From: Myxococcota bacterium
GTDB lineage: Bacteria > Myxococcota_A > SURF-8
Assembly (NCBI GenBank): GCA_963674735.2
Contig: CAXXQS010000002.1
Location: forward strand, 1,952,001-2,016,000
Length of the DNA stretch: 64,000 nt
Direction of reading: 5' to 3'
Under the pieces are notes generated by a model that searched no databases, was not told the DNA's origin, and worked only from the letters and a program-made list of their open reading frames with translations. Shown piece by piece: positions 26,323 through 37,072 of this stretch; within the stretch, counting starts at the first letter, position 1, and the number at the start of each line of letters is the position of its first letter. Position numbers and translations under genes: made by a program.

Positions 26323-26910
26323 TCATGTCTCTCGAACCTTGGTTTTCTTGAACTTCATGCCCGTACATTTGGCTTTTCGGATCGCTTTGACAATGGGCTC
26401 GGCCAAAAACGTCGTACCGCAGCCGCGCGGTCGAATCACTCGACGATCACCCAGTTTCGACCGTTGCAACACTGGAGCGACAACGGATGATTTGCTGATC
26501 TTTCCATCCATGCCATAGCCGTAATCCGTCCATTCCTCGTCCAGCACGTCCGGTCGGTCGGGGATGTGCAGGGCGTAGTAGGTGTGAAGGATGCCGTCTT
26601 GGTCTACAACGATGTTTTCCAGCCATTCGTAGGCATCGCTCGGCGAGGCATTCTGATCGATGATGGATCTAAGAAGTGGCGAACATAATTCCCAGCCTAA
26701 ATCATTGACAAGATAGTCGGTAAGGATTCCATCACGTAGCTCGAAGATTACCGGTTTCCATTTGTCGTAATGCTTCCCTTCCTGTCTCAGTGTCGGATAA
26801 AGGCCCTGAGGTGTATATCCAACACCGAAGGACATGTCGGAACTGCGAAAAAGATTGTAGAATATTTTCTGAGCCATGTTATCTCCTAAGCTTTGCAACG
26901 ATTTATTCAT
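26323..26910 (-). CDS. Imm11/DUF1629-like immunity protein, array copy 7
   Basis: DYLVNDLGWELCS..., YYALH...DVLDEE, C-terminal AIRKAKCTGMKF; paralogue of six neighbours; alternative RBS-supported start at 26877. Confidence 0.78.
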   Translation of the reverse strand: MNKSLQSLGDNMAQKIFYNLFRSSDMSFGVGYTPQGLYPTLRQEGKHYDKWKPVIFELRDGILTDYLVNDLGWELCSPLLRSIIDQNASPSDAYEWLENIVVDQDGILHTYYALHIPDRPDVLDEEWTDYGYGMDGKISKSSVVAPVLQRSKLGDRRVIRPRGCGTTFLAEPIVKAIRKAKCTGMKFKKTKVRET

Positions 26911-26954
26911 ACCACTCGGATCGTATCATGCCCGGTTCAGCTGTAATATGGGAG

Positions 26955-27521
26955 TTACACTACACGCTCTATTTTGAATTTCATGCCCGTGCATTTGGCT
27001 TTCTTGATGGCTTTCACAATTGGTTCTGCAAGAAAAATTCCCGGAGAATGCCGAGCACGAACAACTCGGTAACCATCGATTTTATTTCGACTGAATATAG
27101 GCCAGATAACTCTTCGCTTATCAAATGTGCCATCTTGATTATGGCCATAACTGCCAGCAGCTCCCATTGCATCCTCATCCAACACGTCCGGTCGGTCGGG
27201 GATGTGTAGGGCGTAGTAGGTGTGACGGACGCCGTGTGGATCAATAACGATGTTTTCCAGCCATTCGTAGTTGTCTTTGGGCGAGGCGTGCTGATCGATG
27301 ATGGATTTCAGTCGCTCCGAACACAAGACCCAGCCTAAGTCGTTGACAAGGTAATCGGTAAGGATTCCATCACGTAGCTCGAAGGTTACTGGAACCCAAT
27401 TATCGAAAGACGTTTCTTCCCAACGTAGAGTCGGATAGAGACCATTTGGTGTATAACCGACTCCGAAGGCAAAATTGCCGGAGCGAAACAATGAGTAATA
27501 TTTCATCGGCGATTTATTCAT
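26955..27521 (-). CDS. Imm11/DUF1629-like immunity protein, array copy 6 (divergent C-half)
   Basis: same family motifs; start ATG 27521 after GGGAGA (ORF track extends it to 27545). Confidence 0.78.
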   Translation of the reverse strand: MNKSPMKYYSLFRSGNFAFGVGYTPNGLYPTLRWEETSFDNWVPVTFELRDGILTDYLVNDLGWVLCSERLKSIIDQHASPKDNYEWLENIVIDPHGVRHTYYALHIPDRPDVLDEDAMGAAGSYGHNQDGTFDKRRVIWPIFSRNKIDGYRVVRARHSPGIFLAEPIVKAIKKAKCTGMKFKIERVV

Positions 27522-27576
27522 AGCAAGATCTCCCGTCAATACCATTCACTGCGAACCATACCCGGTTCAGTGCTGT

Positions 27577-28164
27577 TCATGTCTCTCGAACCTTGGTTTT
27601 TTTGAACTTCATGCCCGTACACTTGGCCTTTCGGATAGCTTTGACCACTGACTCGTTTAAAAACACGATGCTGGAATCACGTGGCCGAAAAATCCCATGA
27701 TCGTTGAGCTTCGACCGTTGGAGAATCGGAGCGATAATGCAGGACTTGTCGATGGTTCCATCCGCATTGCGACCGTAATCCGTCCATTCCTCGTCTAGCA
27801 CATCCGGTGGATCGGGGATGTACAAGGCGTAGTAAGAGTGGTGAATACCGTCTTGGTCCACGACGATATTTTCCAGCCATTCGTAGGCATCGTTCGGCGA
27901 GGCATGTTGATCGATAATGGATCTAAGAAGCTGGGAGCACAATTCCCAGCCTAAGTCATTTGCAAGATAGTCGGTAAGAATTCCGCCGCGTAGCTCGAAG
28001 GTTACCGGTTTCCATTTATCGTAATGCTTCCCTTCTTGTTCCAGTGTCGGATAAAGGCCTTGAGGTGTATAACCAACGCCGAAGGACATGTCGGAACTGC
28101 GAAACAGTTTATAGAAAAGTTGTTGAGCCATGTCATCTCCTAAGCTTTGCAACGATTTATTCAT
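27577..28164 (-). CDS. Imm11/DUF1629-like immunity protein, array copy 5
   Basis: same family motifs; alternative start at 28131 after AGGAG. Confidence 0.78.
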   Translation of the reverse strand: MNKSLQSLGDDMAQQLFYKLFRSSDMSFGVGYTPQGLYPTLEQEGKHYDKWKPVTFELRGGILTDYLANDLGWELCSQLLRSIIDQHASPNDAYEWLENIVVDQDGIHHSYYALYIPDPPDVLDEEWTDYGRNADGTIDKSCIIAPILQRSKLNDHGIFRPRDSSIVFLNESVVKAIRKAKCTGMKFKKTKVRET

Positions 28165-28200
28165 ACCACTCGGATCGTACCATACCCGGTTCGATGCTGT

Positions 28201-28755
28201 TCATGTCTCCCGCACCGTGGTTTTCTTGAACTTCATGCCCGTACATTTGGCTTTTCGGATAGCTTTCACGATGGGTTCAGCAAAAGAGGTCGTATTGCAG
28301 CCCCGCGGTCGAATCAGCCGACGATCACCCAGTTTCGATCGTTGAAGCATCGGAGCGACAATGCAGGATTTGTCGATGGTTCCATCCGCATTGCGACCGT
28401 AATCCGTCCATTCCTCGTCCAGCACATCCGGTGGATCGGGGATGTGCAGGGCGTAGTAGGTGTGACGGATGCCATTTTGGTCCACGATAATGTTTTCCAG
28501 CCATTCGTAGTCGTCCTGGGGTGAAGTATGCTGATCGATAATGGATTTCAAAAGATTCGAACAAAGCTCCCAACCTAAGTCGTTGACAAGGTAGTCGGAA
28601 AGAATGCCATCTCGTAACTCGAAAGTTACCGGAATCCATTTATCGTAATGCTTTCCTTCCCAAACTAGTGTGGCGTCGATGTCCCTAGGTGTATAGCCGA
28701 CGCCGAAGGACATGTCGGAACTGCGAAAAACATCGTAGAATAGTAATTGTTTCAT
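28201..28755 (-). CDS. Imm11/DUF1629-like immunity protein, array copy 4
   Basis: 184 aa, protein identical to copy 3. Confidence 0.78.
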   Translation of the reverse strand: MKQLLFYDVFRSSDMSFGVGYTPRDIDATLVWEGKHYDKWIPVTFELRDGILSDYLVNDLGWELCSNLLKSIIDQHTSPQDDYEWLENIIVDQNGIRHTYYALHIPDPPDVLDEEWTDYGRNADGTIDKSCIVAPMLQRSKLGDRRLIRPRGCNTTSFAEPIVKAIRKAKCTGMKFKKTTVRET

Positions 28756-28805
28756 CCTTCCCCCTTAATACCACTCGGATCGTACCATACCCGGTTCGAT
28801 GCTGT

Positions 28806-29360
28806 TCATGTCTCCCGCACCGTGGTTTTCTTGAACTTCATGCCCGTACATTTGGCTTTTCGGATAGCTTTCACGATGGGTTCAGCAAAAGAGGTCGTAT
28901 TGCAGCCCCGCGGTCGAATCAGCCGACGATCACCCAGTTTCGATCGTTGAAGCATCGGAGCGACAATGCAGGATTTGTCGATGGTTCCATCCGCATTGCG
29001 ACCGTAATCCGTCCATTCCTCGTCCAGCACATCCGGTGGATCGGGGATGTGCAGGGCGTAGTAGGTGTGACGGATGCCATTTTGGTCCACGATAATGTTT
29101 TCCAGCCATTCGTAGTCGTCCTGGGGTGAAGTATGCTGATCGATAATGGATTTCAAAAGATTCGAACAAAGCTCCCAACCTAAGTCGTTGACAAGGTAGT
29201 CGGAAAGAATGCCATCTCGTAACTCGAAAGTTACCGGAATCCATTTATCGTAATGCTTTCCTTCCCAAACTAGTGTGGCGTCGATGTCCCTAGGTGTATA
29301 GCCGACGCCGAAGGACATGTCGGAACTGCGAAAAACATCGTAGAATAGTAATTGTTTCAT
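28806..29360 (-). CDS. Imm11/DUF1629-like immunity protein, array copy 3
   Basis: 184 aa, protein identical to copy 4. Confidence 0.78.
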   Translation of the reverse strand: MKQLLFYDVFRSSDMSFGVGYTPRDIDATLVWEGKHYDKWIPVTFELRDGILSDYLVNDLGWELCSNLLKSIIDQHTSPQDDYEWLENIIVDQNGIRHTYYALHIPDPPDVLDEEWTDYGRNADGTIDKSCIVAPMLQRSKLGDRRLIRPRGCNTTSFAEPIVKAIRKAKCTGMKFKKTTVRET

Positions 29361-29410
29361 CCTTCCCCCTTAATACCATTCGGAGCGAACCATGCCCGGT
29401 TCGATGTTGT

Positions 29411-29971
29411 TCATGTCTCCCGCACCGTGGTTTTCTTGAACTTCATGCCCGTACACTTGGCCTTTCGAATGGCTTTGACAATGGGGTCGGCCAAAAACGT
29501 CGTGCCGCAGCCGCGCGGTCGGATCACCCGACGATCACCCAGTTTCGATCGTTGAAGCATCGGAGCGACAATGCAGGATTTGTCGATGGTTCCATCTGCA
29601 TTGCGACCGTAATCCGTCCATTCCTCGTCCAGCACGTCCGGCCGGTCGGGGATGTGCAGGGCGTAGTATGTGTGACGGACACCGTGTGGATCAATAACGA
29701 TGTTTTCCAGCCATTCGTAGGCGTCGCTCGGTGAGGCGTTCTGATCGATGGTATTTTTTAGTCGTTCCGAGCATAGGTCCCATCCATACACGATGGCCTG
29801 ATAATCCGTGATTACTCCCACTCGTAAAATGAATTCCACGGGTTCCCACATGTTGTTCTGTTGTCTATCCAACAACATCCATTGCGGTGTTTTATTGATT
29901 ACCTCTGCCACTGGATGATTCAAGTCATCATCCATGAATAGCTTGTAGAAGCTAATAAAAGTATTTTTCAT
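29411..29971 (-). CDS. Imm11/DUF1629-like immunity protein, array copy 2 (divergent N-terminus)
   Basis: unique N-terminal ~65 aa joined to a C-half shared with the other copies; GGAGG RBS. Confidence 0.78.
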   Translation of the reverse strand: MKNTFISFYKLFMDDDLNHPVAEVINKTPQWMLLDRQQNNMWEPVEFILRVGVITDYQAIVYGWDLCSERLKNTIDQNASPSDAYEWLENIVIDPHGVRHTYYALHIPDRPDVLDEEWTDYGRNADGTIDKSCIVAPMLQRSKLGDRRVIRPRGCGTTFLADPIVKAIRKAKCTGMKFKKTTVRET

Positions 29972-30025
29972 ATTACCCCTCCTATGGATACCACTCGGAT
30001 CGTACCATGCCCGGTTCGACGCCGT

Positions 30026-30613
30026 TCATGTCTCTCGAACCTTGGTTTTCTTGAGCTTCATGCCCATGCATTTAGCTTTTCGAATGGCTTTGACAATGGG
30101 CTCGGCCAAAAACGTCGTACCGCAGCCGCGCGGTCGGATCAGCCGACGATCGCCCAGTTTCGATCGTTGCAACACTGGAGCGACAACGGATGATTTGCTG
30201 ATCTTTCCATCCATGCCATAGCCGTAATCCGTCCATTCCTCGTCCAGCACATCCGGTCTGTCGGGGATATGCAGGGCGTAGTAGGTGTGACGGATGCCGT
30301 CTTGGTCCACGACGACGTTTTCCAGCCATTCGTAGGCATCGCTCGGTGAGGCGTTCTGATCGATGATGGATCTAAGAAGTGGCGAACATAATTCCCAGCC
30401 TAAATCATTGACAAGATAGTCGGAAAGAATGCCATCACGTAGCTTGAAGGTTACCGGTTTCCATTCATCGTAATGCTTCCCTTCTTGTCTCAGTGTTGGA
30501 TAAAGGCCCTGAGGTGTATAACCAACGCCGAAGGACATATCAGAACTGCGAAACAGTTTATAGAAAAGTTGCTGAGCCATGTCATCTCCTAAGCTTTGCA
30601 ACGATTTATTCAT
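30026..30613 (-). CDS. Imm11/DUF1629-like immunity protein, array copy 1 (presumed cognate)
   Basis: directly downstream of the toxin, ATG overlapping the toxin end; alternative start at 30580 after AGGAG. Confidence 0.8.
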   Translation of the reverse strand: MNKSLQSLGDDMAQQLFYKLFRSSDMSFGVGYTPQGLYPTLRQEGKHYDEWKPVTFKLRDGILSDYLVNDLGWELCSPLLRSIIDQNASPSDAYEWLENVVVDQDGIRHTYYALHIPDRPDVLDEEWTDYGYGMDGKISKSSVVAPVLQRSKLGDRRLIRPRGCGTTFLAEPIVKAIRKAKCMGMKLKKTKVRET

Positions 30614-31592
30614 ACCATTCGGAGCGTATCATGCCCGGTTCATCCAGCACTTTTTCACGAACAAAACGGCCAAACAGATCCAGGAATTTATCAGCATCGG
30701 CACCGGCTTCACGTTGTGCTTCTTCCATTTTCTCCAATACAAATTTATGATAATCCTCCGCGTGCCGCCCGGTATGCGGGATTTCAACCTTGTTCCACGC
30801 ACCGTCGAGGTCGAGATCGTAAAAATCGGCGATCTTCTTGAACTCGGGTGTGTACTCCGAATGGTGGGTGTTGGATGCCAGGTGGTGCGTGTGGACTGGG
30901 AAAGACTTCAGCATGTCGCGGATGGCCGCGCGGCGTTCGGGCAGATCGTCCATGGCCTGTAGTGTCCGGCGGGCTTCGGCGACGCTCAGGAATTTCTTCC
31001 CGAATATGTAAACGACCGGACCGATCAGCAGGTCGGAAGGATCGGGAACACCCACCGCTTCAACGACTTCGGCGGCGGCGGCCAGGGCATCGGCGGCCTT
31101 TTGACCTGCCCGGTTCACGTCGGCGAGATAGGCTTGGCTGTCCGAGCCTTCGCCCGCCAGTGCTTGTTCGTGAGCCACCTTCCGTCGGATCTTCGCCTCC
31201 GCCTGATCCACGGGATCGCCGGTGAACCAGGATTTGACCCAGCCGCCCAGATTGTCCGCGTTCCAGAAATCCGATGGCGTTTCCGTTTCTTCATCCTCTC
31301 CGGTGAAGTGGAAGTCCATCTCGTCCATCCCTTCGTCGACCGGCGGTCTCGCGGCTACTTCCAATTTGCAGGCGCAATTGGGATGCAGGGGTGGGTGGAC
31401 GTCCCAATCCTGGGCGAGGCGTGTTTCTCCGTCGAGCGCCGCGCAGGCGTCGCAGGTCTTGTCGCCCGAGGTCACCCAGGTCAGGTATACCCGGTCGCCG
31501 TTATACCCGGCGACGGCAGCCAGGTGTCCGAACCGGCCCAGTTTCGCATAGGCCCGGTAGGTTTGGAGTCGTTCCGTTTCTATCTGCGCCAC
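30606..31592 (-). CDS. polymorphic toxin: MuF (phage minor head protein)-like N-terminus plus C-terminal AHH-type HNH/EndoVII nuclease
   Basis: WVTSGDKTCDACAALDG...PPLHPNCAC (MuF pattern); HTHHLASN...LDLDGAWNKVEIPHTGRHAEDYHKFV (Tox-AHH pattern); GTG start after GAGGAG; followed by immunity genes. Confidence 0.8.
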   Translation of the reverse strand: MAQIETERLQTYRAYAKLGRFGHLAAVAGYNGDRVYLTWVTSGDKTCDACAALDGETRLAQDWDVHPPLHPNCACKLEVAARPPVDEGMDEMDFHFTGEDEETETPSDFWNADNLGGWVKSWFTGDPVDQAEAKIRRKVAHEQALAGEGSDSQAYLADVNRAGQKAADALAAAAEVVEAVGVPDPSDLLIGPVVYIFGKKFLSVAEARRTLQAMDDLPERRAAIRDMLKSFPVHTHHLASNTHHSEYTPEFKKIADFYDLDLDGAWNKVEIPHTGRHAEDYHKFVLEKMEEAQREAGADADKFLDLFGRFVREKVLDEPGMIRSEWYE

Positions 31593-31714: not shown

Positions 31715-32539
31715 TCAGGGTGCATCGGGAGCGTCGGGGTCGTCTTCCAGATTCCACATGAATCGGCAGCGGCCCATCATGCAGGTTTCGATCGGTAAAC
31801 AATCGTCTTGATCCGAACATTGCGGTGGTGAGCACTCCTCGGCGATGCATAAAGCACCGATGGGGCAACTCGTGTCGTATTCACAACTCTGCTTGCGGCA
31901 AAGGGACTCGATGCAGGCGCTTTGGGGTGGGCAGTCGATGTTTGTTTCGCAGGGGAAGCTTTCACAGCCTGCCCGGTAACAAAGATAGCCGACCGGGCAA
32001 TCCGTTTCCGATTCGCATTCCGCGGGTGCACAGTGGAAGGATCGGCACGTTTCATCCTGTTCGCAGTTCAAGGTGTAATAGCAGTCGGCGGTGTCGCAGC
32101 GACTATTCAGGCAAATGCTTTCACTGTCGCAGTCGCTGTCGACCTCACATTCTCCTTTGATGCAGCGCTTGGCCAGGCAGACATCGGAAGACTGATAGTC
32201 GCAGACGTACCCCGTTGGACAGTCGCTGGTTTGGTAGCATTGAGTCAGCGAGACACTGCAGCGTCCGCTTTCGCAGATACTGTCCACGGCGCAATCGCAA
32301 TCGCTTAGGCAGTGCGGTTCCACGCAAGACCTTCCTTCGCAGATCAGATCCCCGCAGGCAGTATCGTTCAGGCAGTCGTCGGGGGCGTCGTTGCAGCGAC
32401 CGCCGGGGCCGCAGATCGTGTTTCCAGGACAATCGATATCGCGCGAACAGGTTTCTCCCAGGTCGTTTGTCCGGTGGGTGCAGGCGGAGAGTGAAAACAG
32501 GAACAGTGATAGAAGCAACAAATATCGGCTCATTGCCAT
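31715..32539 (-). CDS. cysteine-rich repeat lipoprotein
   Basis: lipobox LSAC, then about 9-10 C-x2-3-D-x-D-C-x4-5-C-x4-C units. Confidence 0.85.
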   Translation of the reverse strand: MAMSRYLLLLSLFLFSLSACTHRTNDLGETCSRDIDCPGNTICGPGGRCNDAPDDCLNDTACGDLICEGRSCVEPHCLSDCDCAVDSICESGRCSVSLTQCYQTSDCPTGYVCDYQSSDVCLAKRCIKGECEVDSDCDSESICLNSRCDTADCYYTLNCEQDETCRSFHCAPAECESETDCPVGYLCYRAGCESFPCETNIDCPPQSACIESLCRKQSCEYDTSCPIGALCIAEECSPPQCSDQDDCLPIETCMMGRCRFMWNLEDDPDAPDAP

Positions 32540-35566: not shown

Positions 35567-37072
35567 TCAATATGGGACTCCGATGTAGATGGGATTGGAA
35601 TACACCCAGATTATTTCGTGTATATACGTGTCGGCTTCGTTTCCCAGCCAAGGGCGTAGATGCTCCGGCACGATTCGCACTTCGCTACGGTAAATGCCGG
35701 ATTCGACCGCAATTTCCAGGTCATGCCCACCTTCGGCGACGACCTCCCATTCGCCGTCATCGGCCTTGAGAATGCGTGCCGATAGGATCGGCTGCGGCCC
35801 GTTCGGGTCCAGACGATAGACCTGTGGCAGGGTTACGCTCAATTGGGCGGATGATCCGGCAAGGATGTGGTCTCCCATTTCATATACAGTTTCAGCGACT
35901 TCGGCATGGAAATCGAAGCCTACCGGATACCCGAGGTAGTCAAAGGCGCCGTACAGGCGTCCGTGGGCGATCGCTTGTTTGAGAACGGCGTCGTCCACCT
36001 CGCCTTCAGGAATCAACACGTAGTTCGAAAACCAATGCATCATGCGGCGAAAGGAATCGATTCGTTCGCCATCGGGACTGGGATTCTTGAACACGTTGCG
36101 ATGGGCGTCGGTGGCGAGGATAGCGGGTAGGGGCTTTTGCATCAAGGCTTTCGACCAGCGGAAAAGGTCGGCTTCGCTTTCCTGGAAAATGCCGATGATG
36201 GCCAGTTCGACCTCCGGGATGGCTTCCGGCTCGGTATCCATCCGTAGCAACAGGCCGATGGCGGCTCCCATGTTGTCCATCAGGTTCTGATGTAAATTGA
36301 ACATTTCGATGCCATCAATCGGCAGATCGAGAATGGTTTCCACTTCCCAACCTTCGGTATGTTGCAGGAAGACCAATCCGCCGGCGGCCTGCATGGCGTG
36401 TATGGCGTCGGCGTCCTTGCTGTTGTAAATGATTTTGCGTTCTTCGATGGTCTCGGCAACGTGATGCTCCAATCCGATCGGCATCATCCCGGTTTCGGTG
36501 CCTGCCGCGACGATTACCCGCCGTCCGTCTTCGCAAACGACCCGATTGGCGACCGGCAGGCCACCTCGTTCGATCAGCTCGTCGCCTTGCTGATAAAGTA
36601 GCACCTCCGGATATTCGTATTCGGCGAAGAGATCGTCGTGATCCGTCAGGAAAACGAAGTCTTGGGCTGTCAGGCACATTCCGGTGCGGCAGTCTTCGAA
36701 ACAGGTTTCATTACGGACGCCATCGATGAAGGGCTCATCGTCGCAGGCGTCATGGGAGTAGGGGGAATGGCTGTGGATAATACCGCGTTTGATGATGAAA
36801 CCTCGTTGCGGTGGCAGTTCATCGGAAGCCATCACCATCCAGGGGTCGTGAAACGGGCCTTCGGGTGCTTCTTCCGTTTCGTTTTCCGAAAGGATATCGG
36901 TTTCCAAGGAATCGTCATCCGCGTCTCGTTCGGCGTCCACGTCACCATCCGGTTCTTGGCTGGTGTCTTGGTCTCCATCGGGAGTCGCGTTCGAGTCGTC
37001 GGCATCGGACATGCAGCCGCTCAAACCTACAAGAAACAGTGACATTATGAAAACAACATTGATGACTCGCAT
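35567..37072 (-). CDS. lipoprotein with PHP-like metallohydrolase domain
   Basis: lipobox LSGC, acidic DGD linker, IHSHSPYSHD, LTDH and TDAH metal-binding motifs. Confidence 0.7.
   Translation of the reverse strand: MRVINVVFIMSLFLVGLSGCMSDADDSNATPDGDQDTSQEPDGDVDAERDADDDSLETDILSENETEEAPEGPFHDPWMVMASDELPPQRGFIIKRGIIHSHSPYSHDACDDEPFIDGVRNETCFEDCRTGMCLTAQDFVFLTDHDDLFAEYEYPEVLLYQQGDELIERGGLPVANRVVCEDGRRVIVAAGTETGMMPIGLEHHVAETIEERKIIYNSKDADAIHAMQAAGGLVFLQHTEGWEVETILDLPIDGIEMFNLHQNLMDNMGAAIGLLLRMDTEPEAIPEVELAIIGIFQESEADLFRWSKALMQKPLPAILATDAHRNVFKNPSPDGERIDSFRRMMHWFSNYVLIPEGEVDDAVLKQAIAHGRLYGAFDYLGYPVGFDFHAEVAETVYEMGDHILAGSSAQLSVTLPQVYRLDPNGPQPILSARILKADDGEWEVVAEGGHDLEIAVESGIYRSEVRIVPEHLRPWLGNEADTYIHEIIWVYSNPIYIGVPY

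Follow-up and report, generated by a model that had tools for sequence, protein, structure and literature searches.

Within a 64,000-nt stretch of a Myxococcota genome (contig CAXXQS010000002.1, positions 1,952,001 to 2,016,000 of the forward strand; hereafter the window), one gene for a 328-aa AHH nuclease toxin is followed by seven intact, co-oriented open reading frames (ORFs) for Imm11-type immunity proteins; ahead of each lies a copy of the toxin ORF's final 30 nt, referred to here as the tip. The toxin gene and the immunity array all lie on the minus strand within window positions 26323-31592. The tips have diverged under protein-coding constraint in the toxin frame. We lean towards reading the array as a homogeneous polyimmunity locus that belongs to a polymorphic AHH toxin and has been remodelled by homologous recombination, with the tip as the link between live toxin modules and orphan immunity cassettes.

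The repeat unit consists of the last 30 nt of the toxin ORF, a stop codon, a cassette-specific leader, an immunity gene and a flank of ~8 nt. The pattern GAACCGGGYATGRTWCGMWSYGARTGGTAT has seven matches in the window and none in 100 shuffles, and these are the only tip matches in the 5.26-Mb genome, also searched for the motif with up to 3 mismatches allowed (the reversed-pattern control gave 0). The live copy T0 (30612..30641; all features given here are on the minus strand) holds the toxin's last ten sense codons, E-P-G-M-I-R-S-E-W-Y, followed by GAA TAA. The same pattern identifies six orphan tips: J1 (29988..30017), which reads EPGMVRSEWY and is followed by CCA TAG; J2 (29373..29402), followed by TAA; J3 (28768..28797), also found as part of a 611-nt exact repeat, identical to J4 and followed by TAA; J4 (28163..28192), followed by GAA TAA; J5 (27539..27568), with AGT for serine where the other tips have TCC, followed by TGA; and J6 (26909..26938), which reads EPGMIRSEWY, is followed by GAA TAA and has no upstream in-frame start codon. 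An in-frame stop thus stands 0-1 codon after TAT in 7/7 tips (GAA TAA three times, TAA twice, CCA TAG and TGA once each), and after each stop come a leader and a ribosome-binding site (RBS) that are specific to the cassette type. The spacer from the previous stop to the tip is 8 nt long in five junctions and 16 nt in one.

Eight of the 30 tip positions are variable (9, 13, 15, 18, 19-21 and 24). Read in the toxin frame, these changes leave only one of ten residue columns variable, with I and V as the two residues, against 3-6 of 9-10 columns in the other five frames. The TCC/AGT difference is a three-base swap that keeps serine. When the tip changes were relocated by Monte Carlo simulation (100,000 trials per model), at most one variable residue with no stop was obtained in 8e-5 of the trials under a block model, in which the serine changes are kept together, and in 3e-5 under an independent model. 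The proportion of synonymous differences (pS) between tips is 0-0.88 and that of nonsynonymous differences (pN) 0-0.12; for the immunity genes pS is 0.21-0.73. With the adjoining spacer as an internal neutral control, 5/8 spacer sites are variable (J1-J5), versus 3/20 tip sites at codon positions one and two (Fisher 0.022). The frame of the orphan tips is open for 18-54 codons from stop to stop, overlapping the previous immunity gene. The initial annotation of this stretch, made from the letters alone, had described a toxin gene with seven paralogous genes of ~185 aa, a toxin-tip repeat before each, tip differences synonymous except for I/V, a stop within one codon of every tip with a type-specific leader and RBS behind it, and 8-16 nt from the previous stop to the tip, and it had taken the tips to have diverged under coding constraint; the counts reported here bear out that description.

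The toxin gene (30606..31592) was defined by its ORF and Pfam matches. It begins with GTG behind GAGGAG and encodes a MuF-like N-terminus, a linker and an AHH (HNH/EndoVII) nuclease. The AHH nuclease core, with an H-T-H-H motif, covers aa 230-303 (30684..30905) and matches AHH (PF14412) with 39.6 bits against a cut-off of 22.3. An exhaustive HMMER search found 700 toxin homologues at E 1e-3 or better, the best of those outside the window being 40-53% identical over toxin residues ~219-328, in alignments that reach their own C-termini. H236, H237, N267, H277 and P319 are invariant in 21/21 aligned homologues, and the His-His pair and downstream Asn/His expected of Tox-AHH members of the HNH/EndoVII fold are present, the motif here being T-H-H as in some homologues. 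The twenty homologues inspected end in a NPx(L/M)(L/V)R..(G/W)W-type motif at their own C-termini, and the invariant P319 lies in the tip. Judged from this conservation, the tip is part of the AHH nuclease domain.

To a large extent the toxin's last 49 codons (30609..30755), which also differ in composition from the rest of the gene, supply the surface that is predicted to bind the immunity protein. Modelled together, toxin residues 215-328 and immunity protein 1 gave a complex with a score of 0.86, the median of 3 runs that share at least 81% of their contacts, and the best control scored 0.00; the predicted local distance difference test (pLDDT) value of the partner is at least 85. In calibration, the mark set for this score was reached by 58/80 solved complexes and by 2/110 mismatched pairs. 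Neither the toxin nor the immunity chain has a sequence relative in the PDB. On the toxin side, the predicted interface comprises residues 279-295, 306-314, 318, 321 and 326-328, the last three groups lying in the tip. The model supports binding of immunity protein 1 to the toxin nuclease domain. An Imm11 protein would be expected to be encoded right behind an AHH/HNH-type toxin and to bind it; here the adjacency is observed and the binding is predicted, and the AHH-Imm11 pairing named in the initial annotation is in agreement with both the profile matches and the complex. Positions of the immunity protein at the predicted interface are more variable than the rest (35/42 versus 79/142, Fisher 0.001). 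With types A and C only, the figures are 17/42 versus 42/142 (P 0.19), and the interface variability is at best a weak hint of specificity divergence.

Counted from RBS-supported starts, the seven immunity genes encode 184-188 aa, in agreement with the recorded protein lengths; their longest ORFs encode 184-196 aa. Gene 1 (type A, 184 aa, 30026..30580), the predicted toxin binder, starts from an AGGAG-supported ATG; its longest ORF (30026-30613) overlaps the toxin stop. In gene 2 (type B, 186 aa, 29411..29971; Imm11 29.4 bits) the N-terminal third is unique and the rest is mosaic. Gene 3 (type C, 184 aa, 28806..29360) and gene 4 (28201..28755) are 100% identical, and for genes 2-4 the longest ORFs have these same limits. 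Gene 5 (27577..28131, longest ORF 27577-28164; 184 aa, Imm11 35.7 bits) is a type A variant whose 5' part is like gene 1 and its middle like gene 3, with one unique 3' segment. Gene 6 (type D, 188 aa, 26955..27521, longest ORF 26955-27545; Imm11 31.8 bits) is the most divergent, has a different C-terminus and is followed by the 16-nt spacer. Gene 7 (type A, 184 aa, 26323..26877, longest ORF 26323-26910), in the last cassette, shares 93% protein identity with gene 1 when the longest ORFs are aligned. The Imm11 (PF07791) cut-off of 22.1 bits is passed by 4/7 copies, the fourth score being 24.5 bits; one further copy scores 16.9 bits, and the two identical copies have no match at E 0.1 or better. 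All seven proteins are 63-93% identical in pairwise comparison. Among distinct genes, pairwise synonymous divergence (dS) is 0.25-2.8 and its ratio to nonsynonymous divergence (dN/dS) 0.11-0.34, and therefore all copies have been kept as proteins over a long divergence; on the strength of these rates, the cassettes are old, functional and under purifying selection. The long type A immunity ORF starts at the ATG within the TAT GAA TAA of the toxin end (tATGAATAA; 30606-30613), and the same ATGAATAAATCG start is found 17 nt further downstream in the type D cassette (27510-27545). The toxin stop and the immunity start therefore probably overlapped originally.

The junctions have a common history. 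An ACAG-type spacer opens all 6 internal junctions as well as the flank past the last cassette, and the 3' flank of gene 7, ACAGGACT, is homologous to the internal spacers. The joint between toxin tip and immunity gene was therefore made once and inherited by later copies, which argues against independent illegitimate captures and makes the 30-nt boundary a frozen accident and not a designed site. A decayed tip past the last cassette was considered and dropped: when that flank was aligned locally with the junctions, 93-444 of 500 shuffles did as well, and only its first 12 nt are junction-like.

Cassettes 3 and 4 are an exact duplicate, with a 611-nt run of period 605 at 28163-28773 and 28768-29378, and units 3 and 4, headed by J2 and J3, differ at 4 positions only, all in tip positions 9-24. 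This is an in-place tandem duplication by unequal crossing-over with its exchange point in the last 6 nt of the tip, at the edge of the common block formed by the immunity 3' end, the spacer and the tip. Mosaicism is strong along the units, as the nearest neighbour switches from segment to segment; in unit 2 the first 240 columns are unique, and the nearest relatives after that are unit 6 (92-93%), unit 3 (96-100%) and unit 1 (95%). In 5/5 triplets tested, the best maximum chi-square segment was reached by 0-1 of 300 shuffles. A possible breakpoint at the tip 3' end between cassettes 1 and 5 was counted by hand (4 differences in 24 nt versus ~9 in 176 nt), too few to claim.

The live toxin gene also carries a compositional break. 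Its GC content at third codon positions (GC3) is 0.73 up to codon 279 and 0.35 over the last 49 codons (from window ~30755), a changepoint reached by 1/5000 shuffles, and overall GC is 0.45-0.51 over the array (26600-30799, including the toxin's last 65 codons) versus 0.55-0.63 in the flanks. Because of this changepoint and of the low GC across the array, we infer that module exchange has taken place in the live toxin, with codon 279 as the left edge of the replaced specificity module.

We propose that a single illegitimate tandem duplication, starting 30 nt before the toxin stop, would have created the first joint of an immunity flank with a toxin tip. The block of immunity 3' end, spacer and tip could then have served as homology for unequal crossing-over within the array, and the same conserved block could have let toxin-immunity modules that had diverged in related strains recombine with the array. 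A live toxin module and an orphan cassette have no sequence but the tip in common, so incoming modules would cross over inside it, and by such a crossover the old immunity gene would be pushed downstream and not lost. The orphan tips would be rewritten repeatedly from live toxin genes, in which those ten codons may be under selection because they belong to a conserved part of the nuclease domain that is predicted to touch the immunity protein; this renewal would explain tips that are clean as coding sequence beside spacers that have drifted. The stacked paralogues may protect against toxin variants of relatives. In a more far-reaching form, which is conceivable and in our judgement doubtful, the tip would be a portable landing pad that needs no recombinase: modules of competitors would cross over in the tip and in the immunity 3' block or the next tip, foreign immunity genes would be added with the old ones kept in order, orphan tips would be rewritten from live toxins, and the array would become a heritable record of toxins met or once carried. 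The proposal that cassettes were captured by recombination at the tip had been made earlier for this locus. The part of it that stands is that recombination resolves in the tip, as in cassettes 3/4; no foreign allele was found in the collections searched, and the junction was made once and not captured each time.

Several observations weigh against remodelling by homologous recombination with outside modules. The spacers are diverged at 5/8 sites and the junctions are therefore old, which leaves either repeated renewal of the tips or direct selection on them in place. RecA-type recombination would have only a short substrate in 30 nt with 1-7 mismatches, and the tip haplotypes show no clean association with the flanking cassette type on either side. 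A word-index search with the toxin C-terminus (200 candidates) returned only the toxin itself at E 1e-30 or better. Of the 14 proteins matching the immunity profile, five are from the window and the best of the others is 41% identical; the profile had matches in 0/400 other genomes of the phylum. No related locus and no stretch with the degenerate tip pattern were found in the genome, metagenome or viral contigs searched. Since nothing searched contains a related array, second toxin allele or close immunity homologue, the postulated donors are unobserved. Three public runs of one study, with no RNA run among those listed, yielded contigs that are short fragments at this locus, too broken up to reveal structural variants; they gave no alternative joints, and such contigs drop rare variants.

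These negative results have to be read against the sampling. Toxin alleles with the variant tips, as expected by the earlier proposal, were not found outside the locus; the lineage is thinly sampled, its family being represented by 5 other genomes in four genera in the collection, and this failure therefore does not refute capture. Imm11 matches at E 1e-5 or better occur in 20/400 other phylum genomes, none with two matches side by side; it should be mentioned that this threshold detects only 3/7 copies in the genome of origin, so diverged tandem copies could be missed. In the public runs, the parts of run X3 without cover coincide with low depth and are not evidence. One contig had looked like a variant of cassette 7 with 5 differences; by reading of the alignment all five are cassette-1 letters, and the contig is therefore cassette 1 placed on its near-twin. 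Loose contig ends at the locus come from high-depth GC-rich contigs of other organisms.

Other explanations of the tips have been weighed against the recombination model. The orphan tips could be under present-day selection as short ORFs that run from an ATG overlapping the previous stop (ACATGA) to just before the next RBS, acting as a ribosome relay or encoding a ~14-aa toxin-tail-like peptide. Such an ATG is in frame with 5/6 orphan tips, where it overlaps the upstream TGA, and in 6/6 the stop 0-1 codon after TAT stands beside the next Shine-Dalgarno sequence; the tip constraint persists beside diverged spacers, as direct selection predicts, and contacts with the immunity protein are predicted for toxin residues 318, 321 and 326-328. 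However, for a ribosome relay an open frame would be enough, whatever its sequence, the ATG arises simply because the immunity genes end in a conserved ...ACA TGA, codons 2-4 of the mini-ORFs vary non-synonymously (N-G-V, N-N-I, N-S-I and N-S-T), and J6 keeps the same peptide despite having no upstream start codon. We regard selection on such mini-ORFs as unlikely. The tips could instead be neutral passengers of plain in-place tandem duplication, divergence and gene conversion, with a silent pattern produced by chance or homogenisation. The in-place duplicate of cassettes 3 and 4, the one founding junction common to all units, conversion tracts of 96-100% identity between cassettes and the lack of a foreign allele in the collections searched all fit this account, which the initial annotation had named as one that could overturn its own; at least one cassette is indeed a plain duplicate. 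As an account of the whole array it is disfavoured by the Monte Carlo result and the spacer contrast, since neutral tips should resemble the spacer, by the TCC to AGT change, in which three bases changed and serine was kept, and by the fact that homogenisation alone would lower diversity without sorting it by codon position. Passenger tips are thus quite improbable.

The co-oriented short immunity genes, the conserved motif between them and the exact, uniform boundaries would also suit an integron-like or rAID-like system (recombinase-associated acquired interbacterial defence), with the 30-nt site as the target where a site-specific recombinase would add immunity cassettes. The 30-nt motif is a piece of the toxin ORF, however, and not an attC-like element. 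No tyrosine recombinase is present in the window, as had been noted before, and the nearest of 11 Phage_integrase matches in the genome is ~175 kb away. No structured site separates the cassettes: the 7 junction regions fold no better than shuffles (z -1.03 to +1.11), a 6-bp hairpin occurs in only 2/7 tips, and no RNA or DNA structure was found at the tips. We give this mechanism hardly any credence.

The locus sits in an ordinary chromosomal setting. In the 5.26-Mb genome the toxin has a copy number of 1, and the immunity genes are exactly these 7. The flanking genes encode a thiolase, a hydroxyacyl-CoA dehydrogenase, RelA/SpoT, a PD40-repeat protein and a cysteine-rich DUF7107 protein, with no phage or secretion genes among the neighbours. 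The distance from each stop to the next RBS-supported start is 41-76 nt across the array. Because promoter-like and terminator-like sites in the array are no more frequent than in shuffles, the toxin, its cognate immunity gene and the six orphan cassettes probably form one operon. Directly upstream of the toxin (31715-32539), a cysteine-rich predicted lipoprotein with DUF7107 repeats is encoded. For a 501-aa ORF of the same gene string (35567-37072), no Pfam family reaches E 1e-3.

The MuF-like, zinc-ribbon-type N-terminal domain of the toxin (aa 5-77, 31362..31580) was assigned from a sub-threshold Pfam match and from its likeness to proteins of a relative of the same order, genome G006. Phage_Mu_F scores 24.4 bits on it, under the cut-off of 29.6, and aligns only over profile positions 32-111 at the end of the model. 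MuF polymorphic toxins of temperate phages are a known class (Jamet et al. 2017, PMC5576092); here the match stays below the threshold and the context is not that of a prophage. Toxin residues 2-103 are 48% identical to a 358-aa toxin in G006 that scores with both AHH and Phage_Mu_F and is followed by one Imm11 gene, and its AHH region is only 31% identical to that of the toxin described here. A shared constant N-terminus, a different toxin C-terminus and an own immunity gene, the marks of a polymorphic toxin, are thus all found, and the MuF-like domain is probably the constant trafficking part of the family. The G006 locus shows the simple state, a MuF-N/AHH toxin with one Imm11 gene and no array. 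The N-terminal ~100 residues (CxxC...HPNC(A/R)C, zinc-ribbon-type) recur in G006, including at L027 4635-5711. The toxin N-terminus query has 8 matches in that genome, several of which are fragments of the same two loci, and at least 3 others cover only residues 37-78. These similarities point to a short polymorphic toxin family with a MuF-like N-terminus in a non-prophage chromosomal setting.

The second MuF-N/AHH toxin copy of G006 (G006:C3:193175-194172, in L020, L021 and L023) is broken by TGA and TAA, and an Imm11 gene follows at C3:194520-194771; the toxin seems to have decayed while its immunity gene was kept. A cysteine-rich 727-aa protein is encoded ~4.5 kb away from the G006 toxin locus on L027 (10232-12415, minus strand); it is different from the lipoprotein upstream of the toxin described here, and its position may be a coincidence. 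Downstream of the same G006 locus, a 100-nt direct repeat, 85% identical (L027 8948-9047 and 9641-9740), brackets a 168-aa ORF.

Much of this architecture has precedents. Imm11 has been paired with Tox-AHH and is among the families that form prominent homogeneous polyimmunity loci; such loci, several of which have XerC/D recombinases next to them, were proposed as a back-up against non-kin toxins (Zhang et al. 2012, PMC3482391). The array resembles these loci in its tandem, co-oriented, tightly spaced paralogous immunity genes, of which there are seven here where at least four define a homogeneous polyimmunity locus. It differs in that no toxin-derived repeat between the genes is described in the available text of that work, and in that the present array is fused to a live toxin gene with no XerC/D recombinase near.

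For Vibrio cholerae type VI secretion loci, a model has been put forward in which the old effector gives way to an incoming effector-immunity module and the immunity gene of the old one ends up further downstream; one displaced effector 3' end was described (Kirchberger et al. 2017, PMC5361080). Both arrangements consist of a single effector with a row of immunity genes behind it. According to the part of that study available to us, the right-hand join was proposed to be illegitimate (homology-facilitated), the immunity genes are of unrelated types, and donors are documented in other strains. In the present array, by contrast, every join is a 30-nt toxin tip, the genes are paralogous, both crossovers could be homologous, and no donors are known. 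Sequential displacement would predict live effectors in other strains whose cognate immunity genes match the orphans; the searches turned up no relatives of any kind, in collections with only five other genomes of the family.

The locus also behaves like the esaG (and tipC) strings found at type VII secretion loci, where paralogues that are not identical to one another stand behind a polymorphic nuclease toxin; in Staphylococcus aureus, homology blocks, one of which is the gene end with the downstream intergenic sequence, drive gain, loss and mosaicism of esaG (Garrett et al. 2022, PMC9484751). Conserved blocks that include a gene end with the intergenic sequence, mosaic genes and copy gain at the blocks are all found here, and the reported esaG11 duplication resembles that of cassettes 3/4. 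A tspA 3' fragment between tsaI10 and tsaI11 is a single instance in the text of that study, whereas here a toxin fragment heads every cassette. The consulted text of that study does not report the esaG intergenic block as a piece of the toxin ORF or describe silent-only variation in it. The toxin family, the immunity family and the phylum also differ.

Orphan immunity arrays of the rAID/integron kind were reportedly described by Ross and co-workers in 2019, and orphan toxin/immunity modules of contact-dependent inhibition (CDI)/Rhs loci are said to have been described by Poole and co-workers in 2011. The rAID systems and integrons have co-oriented orphan immunity genes with conserved intergenic motifs, and defence against the toxins of others has been proposed for them (Azhieh et al. 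2025, 10.1101/2025.05.03.651265). As far as the consulted text defines them, they have an associated tyrosine recombinase and heterogeneous immunity genes; here no recombinase is found within ~175 kb and the motif is toxin coding sequence. CDI/Rhs orphan modules, known to us through the Koskiniemi experiment as described in PMC5361080 and PMC9484751, are likewise displaced downstream of the main polymorphic toxin gene, with homology that permits recombination. In those descriptions, the orphans retain the whole toxin C-terminal domain and some of the 5' constant region and can be re-armed. In the present array only 30 nt of the toxin 3' end stand before each orphan, and with only the last 10 toxin codons left the orphans can supply immunity and no toxin.

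The Imm11/AHH pairing, homogeneous Imm11 polyimmunity loci, displacement arrays and immunity paralogues that recombine, one array of them with a lone toxin 3' fragment, are thus already in print (PMC3482391, PMC5361080, PMC9484751). The full-text literature searched gave no account of a toxin 3' tip placed before each orphan cassette, or of such relics varying at silent sites only; supplements might bear on this for esaG. The locus is a mechanistic clue that rests on one genome. Silent-only variation in a sequence that is formally non-coding in 6/7 copies is an unusual evolutionary signature. The way in which strings of orphan immunity genes assemble is an acknowledged open point: rare illegitimate recombination was invoked for the V. 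cholerae arrays (PMC5361080), and the acquisition route of homologous orphan copies has been called not yet clear (10.1101/2025.05.03.651265). The present locus offers a concrete and testable alternative, in which a short piece of the toxin ORF, conserved for the nuclease domain and for its predicted contact with the immunity protein, doubles as the homology that joins toxin modules to orphans. It suggests that a toxin tail can act as a recombination handle for stacking spare antidotes, and the silent-only signature, if sought in other polyimmunity loci, could tell displacement or capture from simple duplication.

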